In this document: in pieces, positions 42 to 6,060 of the stretch
Layout of the letters: every line of letters starts with the position of its first letter
How positions within the stretch are numbered: the first letter of the stretch is position 1
Source of the DNA: Promethearchaeota archaeon
Lineage (GTDB): Archaea; Asgardarchaeota; Hermodarchaeia; Hermodarchaeales; Hermodarchaeaceae
Length of the DNA stretch: 6,060 nucleotides
Assembly: GCA_048938295.1 (NCBI GenBank)
Contig: JBHLMI010000012.1
Location: 25,143 to 31,202 of the forward strand
Direction: 5' to 3'
Translations under genes and position numbers: made by a program
Notes under the pieces: generated by a model
Told to the model about the DNA's origin: nothing
Database searches by the model: none
The model's input: the letters and a program-made list of their open reading frames with translations, nothing else

Positions 42-965
42 CTACTTTTTGTTTTGTTCACTAGCTGTGAAAACGAGATAGACGCCTTGTGGTGGGATAA
101 TACCTCGTTCTGTGATGAGCGCATCAATGTGTTCATGTCCAGTAACATCGAAGAGTGGATTTCGAATTGTAACAGTTGGATTTATTTCTGCAGTGGGAAC
201 GACTTGGCTTGGATTTCCTTCCTCAAGGGTAATGAGACGCCCTGAAATGGTTTCAGGAGAGAATTTGTAACTCCCCACAGCAATGAGGACACGAACCCGC
301 GCAGCGTGGCATAGTTCTGCCAGCGTCGCTGTTCCTACTTTAGAAACTATTGCCCCATTGGCAGCAATAGCTTCGCCTCCGGTTAACAGAATATCAATAT
401 CGGGTAAGAATATGCGCGCAGCGAAATCTGTAATGAGTGTGACCGGGATGCCAAGGTCTGCAACTTCATTGGCTAAAAGACGGCCTTCAAGGTCGGGACG
501 ACTTTCGGCAACGACTACTTGGATTTCCTTCCCTTGCTCTTTGACCTTTTTCAGAATTGCTAATACTGTGGTGCTACGACATAGTGTTAAGATGCGATCG
601 CCGGATCTAATCCGTTTCGCACCAATTTCCCCTATTCGTTGCTTAGCGTCTGCAATTCGGGCTACAAAGTCATCACAGGCGCTCGCAATTGTTTTACGAA
701 TTTTCTGTAATGAGGCTTTTTTCTGATACACCTGTTGGGCTGCATCTTCGATGTAGTCTAGGCAGTTAAGTAAAGCCGCTGAACTTTGACGAGCTTCCCG
801 GAGGCCATAAGCGGCGACATTAATTTGGTCAAGGAATTCCTTTGTAGATCTGGCAGGCGCCTTTAAAGCAATATCTTTTATCGCTGAGGCGGCTGCAATG
901 GCCGTTCCATCAGCACTAGCGATTTCATAATTCTTGAACTTCTTGATGAGCCAATCAACGTTCAA
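42..965 (-). CDS. eIF2B alpha/beta/delta / ribose-1,5-bisphosphate isomerase family protein; divergent paralog, probably catalytically altered (about 307 aa)
   Basis: Colinear along its whole length with the neighbouring R15Pi: AKRIRSGDRILTLCRS, VVVAESRP, GIPVTLITD, TGGEAIAANGAIVSKVGT, SYKFSPET, RNPLFDVT, IDALITERGIIPPQG. The ORF track starts at 1082, but that would overlap the opposite gene head-to-head. A TTG at 965 (LNVDW...) has GGAGG 9 nt upstream (979-975, minus strand) and aligns with the R15Pi N-terminus, so 965 is the preferred start (inference). Confidence 0.88.
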   Translation of the reverse strand: MNVDWLIKKFKNYEIASADGTAIAAASAIKDIALKAPARSTKEFLDQINVAAYGLREARQSSAALLNCLDYIEDAAQQVYQKKASLQKIRKTIASACDDFVARIADAKQRIGEIGAKRIRSGDRILTLCRSTTVLAILKKVKEQGKEIQVVVAESRPDLEGRLLANEVADLGIPVTLITDFAARIFLPDIDILLTGGEAIAANGAIVSKVGTATLAELCHAARVRVLIAVGSYKFSPETISGRLITLEEGNPSQVVPTAEINPTVTIRNPLFDVTGHEHIDALITERGIIPPQGVYLVFTASEQNKK

Positions 966-1030
966 CGTGTACCGCCTCCATGACAGCATTAAATACCTTG
1001 ATTCGGTATTAAATGCCTCGGCGAAGAGTG
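966..1030. promoter_or_regulatory. Compact divergent (bidirectional) promoter region with two TATA-like elements and RBS-like motifs
   Basis: 65 bp between the divergent starts. ATTAAATA at 988-995 reads as a TATA-like box on +; ATTTAATA at 1014-1007 reads as one on -. GGAGG at 979-975 (-) and a weak GAGTG just before ATG 1031. No TSS data. Confidence 0.5.
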
Positions 1031-2008
1031 ATGACATTAATTCCTCCTGAAACTCAGAAAATCGCAGAGGATATTCAGTCAATGCGTACGCGGGGAGCAG
1101 GACGCATCGCCCGTGCCGCAGCCAAGGGGCTAGTTATTGCTGCACAGGAGTCCAAGGCAAAACAAGTTCCTTCATTTCTTCGAGACATAGCTGTTGCGGC
1201 TCAGTTGCTCTATGAAACAAGACCGACTGCTGTCTCATTACCTAATGCATTGAGTTTTTTTTACACCCGGCTACTCAGCCGGCTTGATCAGACCCAAGGC
1301 ATTGCGGCGTTAAAAGAGGCTAGCGTAAAAATTGGCGAAGGCTTTATCGAGATGTCAAATAATGCAGTGAAAACCATCGGGCAAATTGGTTCACGGCTGA
1401 TCCAAGATGGAGACATCATCTTTACTTATTGTAATAGCGCCACAGCCTTCAGTGTCCTAAAAACCGCTTATTCGATGGGGAAGGAATTTAGTGTCTTCGT
1501 GCCCGAGACCCGACCGAAGTATCAAGGGCATATTACGGCTACCTGGCTGGATAAAGCAGGAATCCCATGTTCGTTGATAACAGATAATTCTATTAGGTAC
1601 CTCATTACACGATCTGACAAGGTGTTTGTGGGAGCTGATGCGATTACGGCTAACGGCGCAGTAGTGAACAAGATCGGAACCAGTTTGGTTGCCCTAGCCG
1701 CAGATGAAGCTCGATTAGACTTTTTTGTCGCAGCTGAAAGCTACAAGTTCAGCCCTGCCACGATGGCAGGTGAGTTAGTAGAAATTGAAGAACGGGATAT
1801 CTCGGAAGTCGTCACGAAAGAAAAGCTTGCAGAGTGGAAACATGTGAGTGTTCGTAATCCTGCATTTGATGTCACGCCTCCAGAATACATCGATGCCATC
1901 ATCACCGAGAAGGGCATCATCCCGCCTCAGGGTGCTATCGCAATATTATATCGTGAGTTTGGATGGTATTCCACGGAACAAGCGTTCCCATGGAATCCTT
2001 ATCTCTAA
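1031..2008 (+). CDS. e2b2: Ribose-1,5-bisphosphate isomerase (R15Pi, eIF2B-like family, archaeal AMP/pentose-bisphosphate pathway), about 325 aa
   Basis: All hallmark motifs of Thermococcus-type R15Pi are present: RGAG (1091-1102), ETRPTAVSLPNAL, TYCNS with the catalytic Cys (1430-1432), ETRPKYQG, VGADAI with the catalytic Asp (1637-1639), NKIGT, ESYKF, NPAFDVTPPEYID, and a C-terminal EFGW...PW tail. Start placed at the second Met (1031), which puts Cys and Asp at 134 and 203 versus 133 and 202 in T. kodakarensis (numbering from memory). The ORF-track start at 1013 lies inside the promoter repeat. Confidence 0.93.
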   Translation: MTLIPPETQKIAEDIQSMRTRGAGRIARAAAKGLVIAAQESKAKQVPSFLRDIAVAAQLLYETRPTAVSLPNALSFFYTRLLSRLDQTQGIAALKEASVKIGEGFIEMSNNAVKTIGQIGSRLIQDGDIIFTYCNSATAFSVLKTAYSMGKEFSVFVPETRPKYQGHITATWLDKAGIPCSLITDNSIRYLITRSDKVFVGADAITANGAVVNKIGTSLVALAADEARLDFFVAAESYKFSPATMAGELVEIEERDISEVVTKEKLAEWKHVSVRNPAFDVTPPEYIDAIITEKGIIPPQGAIAILYREFGWYSTEQAFPWNPYL

Positions 2009-2040: not shown

Positions 2041-2751
2041 CTATTCTTTAGCCTGTGTACGGATTTCCTTTCGCCATTCTTTGATGCGGGCTTCCGGAAT
2101 ACCAGTAAGCAGTGATAGATCTCGGGAATTTTCGGCTTTGAAGTCATCGAGCGACTCTACACCTAGCTCTTTGAGTAGCTTGACATCAGAACGGGTAATC
2201 TCGGGGAGATCTTTGAGCTCCTTAATCTTAGGCTCTTTAGCCTTCTCTTCACGTGCAGCCTTGGTCTTTTCTCGCCCATACCGTTTCGCAGATTCTACGA
2301 GCTTTTCAGCACGATCCCGTTTCAAATCAGTGATACGTGCTAAGCGTCTGGGTGAAATTCTTGCTAGATCATGAATATTCCTTACGCCTGCCACTACAAG
2401 AGTCTCAGAGAGTTTCTTTGCTACGCCACTAAGATTGGTCAAGTCTGTCTCAATGGGCGTGGGCTCCGGTTCAGGTTTTGGCTTTACCTTTGTTGGCTTT
2501 GGCTTCTCAGCTACTGGTGCCGATTTAGACGCCTTTGGAGCGATTTTTAATTTACTGATGCGTTTAGCGTAATCCTTGAGCAGTTTTACATTTTCAGGGT
2601 GTTTTGTTTTCCGCCGACTATCAATGGGAATTGCCATCCAGCGAGCATCCGCTAGCTCGATACCTGCATCTTTCAGTTCAGAGTGGCTGAACCCCCGACC
2701 CCGGCGAGTTTCACCTGTTTGAGGAGCATGAATTTCTGGTCGAAAGGCCAT
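2041..2751 (-). CDS. rpl13e: 50S ribosomal protein eL13 (L13e) fused to a Lys/Pro-rich linker and two C-terminal helix-hairpin-helix (HHH_5/DUF4332-like) modules
   Basis: The N-terminal ~60 aa carry the eL13 signature RRGRGFSHSELKDAG...AR..AIPIDSRRKTKHPENVKLLK. A K/P/A/E-rich linker follows (aa ~66-101), then two similar ~55-aa units: DLTNLSGV...LVVAGVRNIHDLA...L...TDL and ELKDLPEI...LKELGVESLDDF...L...TGI. GGTGA RBS at 2763-2759, 7 nt before the ATG. Confidence 0.88.
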   Translation of the reverse strand: MAFRPEIHAPQTGETRRGRGFSHSELKDAGIELADARWMAIPIDSRRKTKHPENVKLLKDYAKRISKLKIAPKASKSAPVAEKPKPTKVKPKPEPEPTPIETDLTNLSGVAKKLSETLVVAGVRNIHDLARISPRRLARITDLKRDRAEKLVESAKRYGREKTKAAREEKAKEPKIKELKDLPEITRSDVKLLKELGVESLDDFKAENSRDLSLLTGIPEARIKEWRKEIRTQAKE

Positions 2752-2933: not shown

Positions 2934-3551
2934 ATGATGGGACAAAATGATAATCATCGCTTAATGTCTCACACAACCACTGTTGCTGTGAAAGTGAACG
3001 GTGGGGTGGTTCTTGGTACTGAATCGCAAGCCTCAATGGGTTACCTTGTTGCAAGCGATACGGCACCGAAAATTCTGCAGATTACTGACCATACGGCAAT
3101 GACGATTTCAGGATCCGTTGCCGATGCGCAGCAACTCATCAACAATATTCGCGCAATCGCCCAACTCGAATCTTTAGATACCGGCCGTGAGTTAACCGTT
3201 AAAGCGATTTCACGACTCACATCTTCGATTCTATTTCGAAACCGCATGTTTCCCTTAATCACGATGCTTATCGTCGGTGGAGTTGACAAGGAAGGAGCGC
3301 ACATTTACATGCTCGATCCATTGGGCAGTATGTTGGAGGAGGAGAAATTCACTGCCACAGGAAGTGGATCAGTAGTAGCCTATGGTGTTCTTGAAGATGA
3401 GTATCGCGATAACATGGGTGTGGATGAAGGAAAAGAGTTGGTCACACGGGCTGTCAATGCTGCTCGAAAACGCGATATTGCGTCAGGTGGCGCTATTCAG
3501 ATGGCGATAATTAGCAGTGAAGGCGTTGACATCTCACGCGAACAACTTTAA
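2934..3551 (+). CDS. psmB: 20S proteasome beta subunit (Ntn hydrolase) with a 13-residue propeptide
   Basis: TTTVAV mature N-terminus (Thr1 codon at 2973-2975), Glu17 (GTESQ), Lys33 (APKILQI), ISGSVADAQ (Gly47), LIVGGVD, DPLGS, ATGSGS and RDIASGG. Confidence 0.96.
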   Translation: MMGQNDNHRLMSHTTTVAVKVNGGVVLGTESQASMGYLVASDTAPKILQITDHTAMTISGSVADAQQLINNIRAIAQLESLDTGRELTVKAISRLTSSILFRNRMFPLITMLIVGGVDKEGAHIYMLDPLGSMLEEEKFTATGSGSVVAYGVLEDEYRDNMGVDEGKELVTRAVNAARKRDIASGGAIQMAIISSEGVDISREQL

Positions 3552-3577: not shown

Positions 3578-4537
3578 CTAGATCACACAGCAGGCATTGT
3601 GTTTGATGACGGTATAATCATTTTTTTCTAGGTATTGGAGCGTAGCTCTGGTAGGCTGAACAAGACGAGTAACCCCCGCCTGAACTGCGAGCTGTTCCGT
3701 TTGATGTCGAATGCGTCCACGGGGTCGCATACAACCAAGGGCGATTTCTGTTTTGGGGAAGAGGAGCCGGGCGATAGCACAGATGCGAGCAATGTCATAG
3801 GGGTGTGGAGGTGGGCTATTACTCATAGGTGTGCCTTTAGTAGGCATTAAGGCGATAATAACAATGACTCTAGGTTCAATGGTTTGTTTGATGAGTTGTA
3901 AGGCATCAAATTCACCGACCAGTTTTCCATTACGGAGACCAACACAAATGTGGGGGGCTGTGGAAATCCTGTGCTTTCTAAGTGCTGTTAGTGTTGTAAA
4001 ATAATCCTTTGTGGTTCGTTGCTGCAACCCATAGACTAGCTGAATAGTTGAGTCGTCACCTACAACATCGACCGACGCACAGTCTATTCCCGTTTGAGAT
4101 AGTTCATCTGCTTGAGAATCGGTGAGGAATCCCGTATGAACATTCAGAAAAAGGTTTGATGAGCGCTTGATGTGTGCTAGAGCGGGTAGAAAGGGAGTAA
4201 GAGGAACAGTTCCGGTGTCGTCGCAGCCGCCACTGATTAGGCAGCCGACACCTCCTCGGTGATCTAGTGCTTCACAGAATGCGATGAGGTTCTGAGGGGT
4301 TGTAATCGCGTGCATTGCTTGAAGGAAATGCCTGGCACAATGTTGACAATTTAGTTTACAGTGATGCCCCGTAATAGAAATAGAGGGAAATTCAGTACCT
4401 GGATGGAAAATGGTAATTTGCCGATTGAAGGCTTCTTCGGTCAGGGTTTGGGTATGTGAGAATAGTTCTGTAAGTTCTGTGGAGGACACTTCGAACCAGT
4501 CACGCAGATTGTTTGCTCCCTTGCTCAAGGAGCTCAT
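3578..4537 (-). CDS. lipS1: Radical SAM sulfur-insertion protein, LipS1-type lipoyl synthase subunit (biotin-synthase-like)
   Basis: CxxxCxxC (CKLNCQHC, 4360-4337) preceded by FPSISITG, then GCLISGGCD and NVHTG. GCMR (3736-3725) and the C-terminal CC (3592-3587) are the two motifs described as distinguishing LipS1. Start placed at ATG 4537, which forms an ATGA overlap with the upstream ligase stop; the ORF track starts at 4564. Confidence 0.85.
   Translation of the reverse strand: MSSLSKGANNLRDWFEVSSTELTELFSHTQTLTEEAFNRQITIFHPGTEFPSISITGHHCKLNCQHCARHFLQAMHAITTPQNLIAFCEALDHRGGVGCLISGGCDDTGTVPLTPFLPALAHIKRSSNLFLNVHTGFLTDSQADELSQTGIDCASVDVVGDDSTIQLVYGLQQRTTKDYFTTLTALRKHRISTAPHICVGLRNGKLVGEFDALQLIKQTIEPRVIVIIALMPTKGTPMSNSPPPHPYDIARICAIARLLFPKTEIALGCMRPRGRIRHQTEQLAVQAGVTRLVQPTRATLQYLEKNDYTVIKHNACCVI
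3621..3627 (+). terminator. Possible archaeal oligo-T terminator for psmB (lies inside the 3' end of lipS1 on the opposite strand)
   Basis: T7 run ~70 nt after the psmB stop. It could equally just reflect the GAA AAA AAT codons of lipS1. Confidence 0.2.
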
Positions 4538-5331
4538 TTCTTTAGCCCCCGTTGGTATGTCCAATCGGACTTTGCATACCAGGATCCTGCTATTTTTTGG
4601 GCAGATTGGAGTTCAGCGTCAGTTAAACCTTCATCGTAGAACCGTGCCGGCAATGTGCTGGATAATCCTTCAATCAGGGCTTCTTCGATTTGACCGAAGG
4701 AGGGAGGTGTTCCGAGTTCATGCTGTAATGAGGTCATGCTATTAACTGCCTTCTTGATTATAGTTTCATCGGCTTTTCGTTTGTTCACCTTCAAGACGGT
4801 GAACATCTTTACAAAATCGAGTTTGCGAAGGATCGTGCCATGCTGAAGCAAGGTGTTTCCACGACGGGATTGGGCATTTCCAGAGATTTTCCGTTTCTTA
4901 ACGAAGAGGTTGGGACAAAAATTCTCTGACCCAGCTGAGTATTTCGCACTGACACCAAGCCGACTCAACCCCATAAGGAGGCCTTGGCATAGATACTGGT
5001 ACATTTCAACGATGTCGGACGAGAGTTGCATATCTTGAGTTCGACAGATAATACTGTAGGTAAGCTCGCCTTCAAAATCATGATACACGGCGCCACCGCT
5101 TGATAGTCGCCGGACGATGTCAACGTTGAGTTTTCGGCAGGCTTCTACATCGACTTCATCTTCGAGATGTTGAAATCGTCCAATAGATACAGCTGAGGGT
5201 TTCCAGCGGTAGAAACGAACCGTATTGGCAGCAGTTTCTTTATGGCAGGCATCAAGCAGAACATGATCAATGGCCATATTTTCATAGGCGTTGAAAATAC
5301 CGGTGCGGATTAAGCGCCATAGTTTTGTCAT
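4534..5331 (-). CDS. lplA: Lipoate/octanoate-protein ligase family, catalytic domain only (LplA-N / sLplA-like; no C-terminal LplB domain), 265 aa
   Basis: WRLI, NMAIDHVLL, VRFYRWKPSAVSIGRFQ, VRRLSSGGAVYHD, ELTYSI, KISGNAQ (conserved Lys at 4890-4888) and LLQHGTIL. It lies between lipS2 and lipS1, with a 3-bp gap upstream and a 4-bp overlap downstream. Confidence 0.9.
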   Translation of the reverse strand: MTKLWRLIRTGIFNAYENMAIDHVLLDACHKETAANTVRFYRWKPSAVSIGRFQHLEDEVDVEACRKLNVDIVRRLSSGGAVYHDFEGELTYSIICRTQDMQLSSDIVEMYQYLCQGLLMGLSRLGVSAKYSAGSENFCPNLFVKKRKISGNAQSRRGNTLLQHGTILRKLDFVKMFTVLKVNKRKADETIIKKAVNSMTSLQHELGTPPSFGQIEEALIEGLSSTLPARFYDEGLTDAELQSAQKIAGSWYAKSDWTYQRGLKK

Positions 5332-5334
5332 GTA

Positions 5335-6060
5335 TCAGAGAACTCCTGCCAGTTGGTATGTAATTTCTTCAAGAACTTGCGCAGTAGGTGCTTCTGGATA
5401 GTTGAAGATTGGGCCTCCTGGTTGCTCTGTAAAGAAAGGGCGATTACAAGACGGGCAACCTGTCGTTTGAAAAGCCTTCCCTCGTGCAATAATATCCACT
5501 AGGATTTCTCTAGGCAACCCAAATTTCGTAATATCCTGTGTTGAGTTGTATTGAATCTTATCCAAGGTTACAAGTCGGTTTTGCAGCAAATGAAGAGCTA
5601 GTTGAATTCGACGGTATTGTTGAAGTGTTGGACGTTCCCGGTTCGCTAAAGGGGTTCCAAGAATAGGTGTGAAGGGGAATAGTCCAACGGTGATGGATTT
5701 GTTGACAAGCTGGTGGATTAGATTGACCACTTGGTGTTCTGTTTCACCTAACCCGATGATGAGATGCGTAGTCGCCCGATCCGGTCCAAAAATCGATCGT
5801 GCAGAGTTCAAGGCACGAAAATGGTGCTTCCAAGAAAAAGGACCTTTCACTCCAGTACCTTTGATTTCATTAAACAATCTTGGGGTAACAGCGTCAAGCG
5901 ATACTGCCACACGGTCAACCCCTTGGTCATAAAGGGCTTGGAACTGCTTAGCTTTCATTGGAGGAAGTGCAATGGATAGGGGGATATTTGGCAGATGGCT
6001 CCTGAAGAGGGAAACCAACTGTGTTAGATTTTCGAACAGTTTTGGAGAACAAAGTGTTTG
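5335..6060 (-). CDS. lipS2: Radical SAM protein, LipS2-type lipoyl synthase subunit (5'-truncated by the window edge)
   Basis: TTGCPSCNRP (5466-5437) matches the LipS2 TxGCPxC(N/D)RP motif; also VAVSLDA, HLIIGLGETE and LFPFTPILGT. The frame stays open from 6018 to the window end (QTLCSPKLFENLTQL...), so the TTG at 6018 is not the true start, and the CxxxCxxC motif is expected upstream of 6060. Confidence 0.87.
   Translation of the reverse strand, partial: QTLCSPKLFENLTQLVSLFRSHLPNIPLSIALPPMKAKQFQALYDQGVDRVAVSLDAVTPRLFNEIKGTGVKGPFSWKHHFRALNSARSIFGPDRATTHLIIGLGETEHQVVNLIHQLVNKSITVGLFPFTPILGTPLANRERPTLQQYRRIQLALHLLQNRLVTLDKIQYNSTQDITKFGLPREILVDIIARGKAFQTTGCPSCNRPFFTEQPGGPIFNYPEAPTAQVLEEITYQLAGVL

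Follow-up and report, generated by a model that had tools for sequence, protein, structure and literature searches.

A head-to-head ribose-1,5-bisphosphate isomerase and altered paralog in Asgard archaea: a candidate effector-binding subunit resembling eIF2B-alpha

In a 6,060-nucleotide stretch of the genome of a Promethearchaeota archaeon (family Hermodarchaeaceae; contig JBHLMI010000012.1, positions 25,143 to 31,202; hereafter the window), two divergently oriented open reading frames (ORFs), one on each strand, belong to the PF01008 (IF-2B) family and are 38% identical over 264 residues. One looks like a ribose-1,5-bisphosphate (R15P) isomerase, R15Pi, and the other is an altered paralog of it. 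Why would an archaeon keep such a copy back to back with the enzyme? To our knowledge, every R15P isomerase described so far is a homohexamer activated by AMP, and we know of no described extant intermediate between an R15Pi-type enzyme and the core of eIF2B. The original prediction, made from the sequence of the window, placed an active isomerase and an altered paralog head to head across 65 bp and proposed that they co-assemble. The arrangement and the spacing are confirmed (Table 1). Weighing the evidence below, we lean towards reading the paralog as a sensor or regulatory, effector-binding subunit of a heteromeric R15Pi that does not itself isomerise R15P.

We compared the plus-strand gene with curated families and solved structures. 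Its product scored 380 bits against TIGR00511, the NCBIfam model of R15Pi, above the curated equivalog cut-off of 314.1, and aligned over its full length to Pyrococcus horikoshii PH0208 (PDB 5yfj; E = 4e-99). The roles of individual positions were taken from the PH0208 structures, where Cys135 and Asp204 are catalytic and Arg22, Arg65, Gln166, Lys215, Ser137, Lys240 and Asn214 are listed as ligands (PMC5789824); PH0208 numbering is used for comparisons. The window enzyme keeps both catalytic residues and all substrate ligands (R21, G22-G24, R64, C134, S136, Q165, D203, N213, K214 and K239). Judged by this score and these residues, the product is predicted to be an active R15P isomerase, as had been claimed. 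Its AMP activator site is incomplete: L123 stands at PH Arg124 and D230 at PH Trp/Arg231, with Arg229, Asp290, Asn209 and Arg190 kept.

The source genome (2.5 Mb, 92% complete) encodes an AMP phosphorylase (TIGR03327, 668 bits against a cut-off of 535) and three RuBisCO_large homologs on contigs C22, C2 and C25, the best at 289 bits and two weaker ones at about 160 bits, which are possibly RuBisCO-like proteins. Encoding both AMP phosphorylase and RuBisCO argues that the archaeal pentose-bisphosphate pathway is present, and the plus-strand gene would provide the working R15P isomerase of this AMP/pentose-bisphosphate route. PF01008 has only three members in the genome: the enzyme, the paralog and one MtnA-type gene (contig C8:36554-37441), whose Cys and Asp are intact. 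In other archaea, PRPP synthetase (Prs) is linked to R15Pi genes, as a Prs - R15Pi - RuBisCO operon in a Baldrarchaeia genome (contig C16) and as paralog - Prs - R15Pi at one Bathyarchaeia locus; this hints at a PRPP-fed route into R15P.

Checking the minus-strand product in the same way, we found 269.5 bits against TIGR00511, below the cut-off, and 130 bits against NF006210 (NCBIfam aIF2B), below its cut-off of 339. Its best PDB matches are the Thermococcales R15Pi chains 3a11 and 5yfj. In its own numbering the pocket is made of A16, S17, A18 and D19 (PH 22-25), R59, C129, S131, E160 (PH Gln166), E198 (PH Asp204), S208, K209 and K234. Translated into PH0208 numbering, Arg22 has become Ala, Gly23 Ser, Gly25 Asp, Gln166 Glu, the catalytic Asp204 Glu and Asn214 Ser, and Cys135, Ser137, Arg65, Lys215 and Lys240 are retained. 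Read in this way, the 1-phosphate subsite appears to be gone and the 5-phosphate/sugar subsite preserved, and the pocket would gain about three negative charges. From these residue changes we predict that the paralog most likely no longer isomerises R15P. Its AMP site is whole, with Arg124, Arg190, Asn209, Arg229, Arg231 and Asp290 all present (its own R118, R184, R223, R225 and D281 among them), and its dimer interface is preserved too.

The rebuilt pocket is strictly maintained. Among 71 sequences of the Asgard branch of the paralog, none has Arg at position 22, where Ala or Ser stands instead; Asp25 and Glu204 occur in all 71 and Glu166 in 70. The same branch keeps R65, S137, K215, K240, R190 and D290, together with Arg229 and Arg231 in 71/71 and Arg124 in 70/71. 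The dN/dS ratio is 0.07-0.095 for the paralog and 0.05-0.078 for the enzyme. This low ratio and the invariance of the altered residues themselves argue that the paralog is not decaying. The catalytic Cys is present in the window paralog and in all the Hermodarchaeia and Atabeyarchaeia copies; several deep branches of the paralog clade have Gly or Ser in its place, and it appears to be dispensable there. The description of the paralog as altered thus holds for its conserved pocket, but it has to be narrowed: the catalytic Cys is still in place, and the changes are an Asp-to-Glu replacement and the 1-phosphate ligands.

To survey the pairing, we searched whole genomes throughout the Asgard phylum and scanned GTDB genomes. 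Of the 14 genomes of the genus, 13 carry the head-to-head pair, and the fourteenth has its enzyme on a short contig; three Atabeyarchaeia, of which two are closed genomes, and Sifarchaeum have the pair as well. The pairing is thus conserved in related genomes, Atabeyarchaeia and Sifarchaeia included, in line with the original prediction. Four genomes of the sister genus (completeness 80-83%) showed neither gene. The contigs that carry the Hermodarchaeia-type pair bear inconsistent labels (Odinarchaeota, Thorarchaeota or Promethearchaeota). A second arrangement was found at nine loci labelled Bathyarchaeia or Thermoprotei, where an altered paralog lies directly upstream of a canonical R15Pi on the same strand, overlapping or abutting it. 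In these tandem loci the paralog has Ser or Gly for Cys135, Glu for Gln166 and usually Glu for Asp204; one locus of this type has a PRPP synthetase gene between the paralog and R15Pi. Two of these tandem loci, with Bathyarchaeia-type pairs, sit on contigs labelled as Acidiferrales and Methylomirabilota bacteria, probably through mis-binning.

The phylogeny was built with IQ-TREE from archaeal sequences, and the near-length homolog searches covered the best 120 archaeal matches. All the altered paralogs form one clade (clade B, support 98/99), which splits into a Thermoproteota and Baldrarchaeia branch (99/97) and an Asgard branch (B2, 100/100) that holds the window paralog, which also carries the marker residues of clade B (Glu166 and Glu204, together with Ser137, Lys215 and Lys240). 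Both branches stand apart from canonical R15Pi and from a further, third clade of Asgard sequences, and quick trees agree. A recent, local duplication is not borne out; the paralog belongs to an old clade shared with Thermoproteota. Most other Asgard lineages have a single R15Pi-like gene, which falls in the third clade (100/100). There Cys135, Gln166 and Asp204 are kept, with Gln for Arg22, Thr for Gly25, and Glu209 and Pro231 at the AMP site. One Baldrarchaeia genome, besides a clade-B paralog and a fully canonical enzyme, has an extra R15Pi-like copy (C9:606068-607063) that keeps Cys135, Gln166 and Asp204 and lacks Arg124, Arg190, Asn209, Asn214, Arg229 and Asp290, another degenerate subunit type.

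The incomplete AMP site of the window enzyme has parallels in other paired enzymes. In PH0208, Arg124 and Arg229 bind AMP, and Arg229 is also an inter-dimer contact (PMC5789824). Counting the canonical enzymes whose neighbourhood could be judged, we find that both arginines are kept in 47/47 unpaired enzymes, whereas one or both are gone in 31 of the 34 paired ones. The replacements are Leu/Phe124 with Asp231 in Hermodarchaeia, Leu/Met124 with Ser/Ala229 in Atabeyarchaeia and Leu124 in Sifarchaeia, with Asp, Lys, Asn or His at 229 in others. Since the substitutions differ by lineage, they argue for repeated loss events. A clade-B gene was looked for elsewhere in five genomes with unpaired enzymes, and none was found.

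Performing complex prediction with the enzyme and the paralog (a 64-row alignment for each, three runs), we obtained a canonical heterodimer at high confidence, with an ipSAE of 0.81 (0.80-0.84 among the runs) against 0.00 for the best control, homologous dimers having already been solved. The calibration mark for ipSAE is reached by 58 of 80 solved complexes and by 2 of 110 mismatched pairs. The runs had at least 96% of their contacts in common, the partner pLDDT was 88, and the predicted interface is the canonical C-terminal-domain dimer of R15Pi. The model indicates that the paralog could still form the C-domain interface, and it does not rank mixed oligomers against homo-oligomers, nor does it indicate that the paralog favours the enzyme over a second copy of itself. 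The original prediction had also pointed to strings shared by the C-terminal regions, and these are indeed found in the two proteins (SYKFSPET/SYKFSPAT, RNPLFDVT/RNPAFDVT and IDALITERGIIPPQG/IDAIITEKGIIPPQG). However, structure alignments place the same strings in the solved Thermococcales R15Pi structures; being motifs of the whole family, they are not evidence for co-assembly of this pair in particular.

From these observations we infer that the two proteins associate, that the paralog has lost R15P isomerisation, and what sort of ligand it may take. The paralog would join the enzyme in mixed oligomers through the canonical C-terminal-domain dimer interface. There it would act as the effector-binding subunit, supplying the AMP-site and inter-dimer arginines that are missing from its partner. 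Its rebuilt pocket may bind a sugar monophosphate or a nucleotide, as the eIF2B-alpha pocket does, and both genes would be co-regulated from the one compact, conserved 65-bp divergent promoter region.

Several observations weigh against this sensor-subunit reading. The Hermodarchaeia and Atabeyarchaeia copies keep the Cys and a carboxylate at the base position, and catalysis on another substrate by such Cys-bearing paralogs is possible. Some paralogs, namely those of Baldrarchaeia and one from Bathyarchaeia, have no enzyme gene beside them, and three paired enzymes keep both arginines. The association between pairing and AMP-site loss contains one supported independent contrast and, given the relatedness of the genomes, no statistical power; the reciprocal loss is a suggestive pattern in the sequences, not a statistic. 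The heterodimer score may be a memory effect, since R15Pi homodimers and eIF2B dimers have already been solved. Charge complementarity specific to the hetero-pair was sought at the modelled dimer interface and none was found; the changes there are lineage-specific and neutral (for example, PH187 Ser to Asn in enzymes, Phe/Ile in paralogs).

Could the paralog work on its own instead? It might form homo-oligomers of its own, as an enzyme or a binding protein that has acquired a new ligand such as a sugar 5-monophosphate or a nucleotide; it would then act in the salvage pathway alongside R15Pi, sharing regulation with it but no mixed oligomers. We hold this possible, though doubtful. The kept Cys135, Ser137, Lys215, Lys240 and Arg65, with the Glu carboxylate at the base position in the Hermodarchaeia and Atabeyarchaeia copies, would suit such a protein; the invariant rebuilt pocket implies a specific ligand, the paralog's own AMP-site and hexamer-contact residues are complete enough to make a homo-hexamer feasible, and orphan copies of the paralog exist. 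Yet it leaves the repeated loss of Arg124 or Arg229 in partner enzymes unexplained, and likewise the overlap of the tandem pairs. The catalytic Cys is gone in several branches of the clade, so the function of the family has no need of it. Nor is there a pentose isomerase gap to fill, as RpiA is present in the genome. For the same reason, the paralog was rejected as a replacement ribose-5-phosphate isomerase; RpiB was searched for in the 92% complete genome and was not found. A functionless duplicate in decay would agree with the score below the family cut-off and with the substituted catalytic and ligand positions. It is excluded by the selection and conservation data: the dN/dS of the paralog is low, its frame is intact, its start codon and Shine-Dalgarno (SD) motif are conserved in 12 congeners, its altered residues are invariant across classes, and its clade is old and well supported.

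A third alternative leads to translation. Here the paralog would be a putative aIF2B-like regulator that binds aIF2-alpha, akin to the lineage of eIF2B alpha, beta and delta, and its connection with R15Pi would either be a relic of history or serve to tie translation to nucleotide status. We consider it quite improbable. With three PF01008 matches only, the genome has no other aIF2B-type gene, and Ser135 and Glu166 are common to Thermococcales aIF2B and the tandem branch of the paralog clade, although these residues could be convergent. A tree with aIF2B forced onto the paralog clade came out 3.97 log-likelihood units above the free search (p-AU 0.54). However, in the careful tree, searched freely, aIF2B branches off outside all the R15Pi-like sequences (97/72), and forcing aIF2B together with clade A is likewise not rejected, which leaves the long aIF2B branch unplaced. 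The NF006210 score of the paralog, far below its cut-off, also speaks against this alternative. In profile comparisons, the paralog scored lower than the enzyme on catalytic relatives (368 vs 514 on R15Pi, 154 vs 230 on MtnA) and at least as high on eIF2B-delta (177 vs 164) and human eIF2B-alpha (148 vs 144). These scores fit a shared loss of enzyme-specific features and are no proof of kinship with eIF2B.

Coming back to the paralog as a sensor subunit of R15Pi, the reading has a wider form: archaea, Asgard archaea included, would run a two-gene heteromeric R15Pi in which an eIF2B-alpha-like sensor paralog takes over AMP allostery and the catalytic subunit sheds its own site, and the paralog clade, as the sister of aIF2B, would be a living intermediate on the way to the eIF2B core. 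We rate this wider form as unlikely. If the heteromer is real, it would offer a natural example of the transition from an enzyme to an eIF2B-core type of assembly, caught midway or repeated independently, and a simple recombinant system for the handover of allostery from a catalytic to a regulatory paralog. Pathway annotation would change as well, since 'ribose 1,5-bisphosphate isomerase' and 'translation initiation factor eIF-2B' are the names routinely given to the second copy.

We checked the gene models and the intergenic region in 12 congeneric sequences (the window and 11 congeners). The start codon of the paralog (963-965, minus strand) is TTG in 8, GTG in 2 and ATG in 2. The frame 5' of TTG 965 is not conserved, with indels or stop codons interrupting it in some genomes, and many database homologs start at the matching residue. 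The longest minus-strand ORF, starting at 1082, was rejected in favour of TTG 965 on the conservation of the start codon and of GGAGG and on the broken frame upstream. An ATG at 989 was rejected as well, conservation favouring TTG 965. The conserved Met of the enzyme is the ATG at 1031. The gene model of the original prediction, with a TTG paralog and an ATG enzyme, is thus correct in codon, upstream GGAGG and enzyme Met alike. Its suggestion that TTG lowers the expression of the paralog is weak, because the start codon varies among congeners, some having ATG or GTG there, and the strong SD does not.

Table 1. Coordinates of the gene pair, the intergenic elements and the neighbouring genes in the 6,060-nucleotide window.
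Feature	Position	Strand	Details
Altered R15Pi paralog	42..965	-	307 aa, TTG start, stop codon 42-44; Pfam PF01008 E = 3e-70
Canonical ribose-1,5-bisphosphate isomerase	1031..2008	+	325 aa, ATG start; TIGR00511 380 bits, PH0208 alignment, residue map
Divergent control region	966..1030		65 bp; 63-65 bp in all 12 genomes, highly conserved (intergenic alignment)
GGAGG Shine-Dalgarno-like motif	975..979	-	9 nt 5' of paralog TTG; in 10/12 congeners, GGGGG in two
A/T-rich box 1, GCATTAAATACC	986..997	+	TATA-like; 34-45 nt 5' of enzyme ATG; conserved in 12 congeners
A/T-rich box 2, GCATTTAATAC	1006-1016	-	41-51 nt 5' of paralog start; conserved in 12 congeners
GC-rich block, TCGCCGAG	1017-1024	-	Precedes box 2 on the minus strand; conserved in 12 congeners
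L13e-like protein with helix-hairpin-helix domains	2041-2751	-	236 aa; L13e-like N-terminal segment, Lys/Pro/Glu-rich linker, two HHH_5 domains; unusual ribosomal-protein fusion
Archaeal proteasome beta subunit	2934-3551	+	220 vs NCBIfam cut-off 224 (just under)
Lipoylation cluster	3578-6060	-	One strand: LipS1 (266 bits, above cut-off), LplA-type lipoate-protein ligase, LipS2 (cut by window end)

The two A/T-rich boxes of the spacer are inverted copies of each other, with their centres 20 bp apart. By its position, box 1 is a putative promoter of the enzyme, and box 2 with the preceding GC-rich block is a putative TATA box and transcription factor B recognition element of the paralog. If each gene uses its distal box, as the conserved SD of the paralog requires, the promoters cross, and each transcript would start within the promoter footprint of the other. 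Such crossed promoters, where the distal boxes are used, suggest mutually exclusive or tightly coupled initiation of the two genes. A bacterial promoter and terminator scan of the region was uninformative, the host being an archaeon. Further along the window, the LipS1 and ligase ORFs of the lipoylation cluster overlap by 31 nt as listed. On the 3' side of the paralog, some 150 bp beyond the left edge of the window, the genome copy has a run of masked (N) bases, and past these an unrelated FAD-dependent reductase-like ORF.

How does the pair compare with known members of the family? Thermococcus kodakarensis TK0185 (PDB 3a11, 3vm6) and P. horikoshii PH0208 (5yfj) have the fold and the family of both window proteins. 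The solved enzymes are AMP-activated homohexamers, whereas the window enzyme lacks Arg124, has Asp at 231 and is encoded beside a second, non-identical candidate subunit. This paralog differs from them by a Glu for the catalytic Asp (Tk Asp202/Ph Asp204) and by the missing 1-phosphate ligands Arg22 and Gln166, and keeps the catalytic Cys (Tk Cys133/Ph Cys135).

The aIF2B protein of the Thermococcales type (PH0440, PDB 1vb5) is a non-catalytic member of the family, as the paralog probably is, and has Ser135 and Glu166 like the tandem paralog branch; the forced-tree test above does not reject a sister relationship between it and the paralog clade. It differs in being shorter and on a very long branch, and it keeps Arg22 and Asp204 and lacks Arg65, Arg124, Arg190 and Arg229. 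In a sample of 133 genomes of the Thermococcus phylum, PH0440-type aIF2B at 61-100% identity was found only in Thermococcales-like genomes, the other matches being R15Pi-like. This suggests that the type is an offshoot that evolves fast and is confined to one lineage, and not a factor of archaea in general.

The nearest parallel to the paralog's pocket lies in eIF2B. Its core, an alpha2(beta-delta)2 hexamer, is homologous to R15Pi and built of non-catalytic paralogs of the same fold; the regulatory core is proposed to have arisen from an enzyme of this kind that was duplicated and lost its catalysis (Kuhle et al. 2015, PMC4787765). The alpha subunit uses the former active site to bind AMP, GMP and ribose 5-phosphate, and a Glu takes the place of Tk Asp202 (PMC4787765); the ligands of the 5-phosphate and the sugar remain in it, and those of the 1-phosphate do not (Gogoi and Kanaujia, PMC5789824). 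The window paralog has kept and lost residues in just this pattern. Unlike the paralog, the eIF2B subunits lack the catalytic Cys, and eIF2B has no catalytic isomerase subunit and acts on eIF2. Eukaryotic eIF2B was also sought by a longer-homolog search with the paralog alignment, and nothing was found. The proposal that the pair models the origin of eIF2B therefore holds as an analogy, but the trees do not establish descent.

The searchable literature yielded no more than one brief reference to 'tandem R15P isomerase' genes, located beside a form I-alpha RuBisCO in a Bathyarchaeota metagenome-assembled genome (bioRxiv 10.64898/2026.09.21.753380). That pair is of the same kind as our tandem loci; both genes are treated there as R15P isomerase, and the second copy is left unanalysed. 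The window pair differs from it in being head-to-head and from an Asgard archaeon, with the pocket of its second copy more radically rebuilt. What is new here is the Asgard head-to-head form, a retained Cys in a copy whose N-terminal loop is more radically rebuilt, the reciprocal pattern at the AMP site, and the residue-level match of the paralog to eIF2B-alpha.

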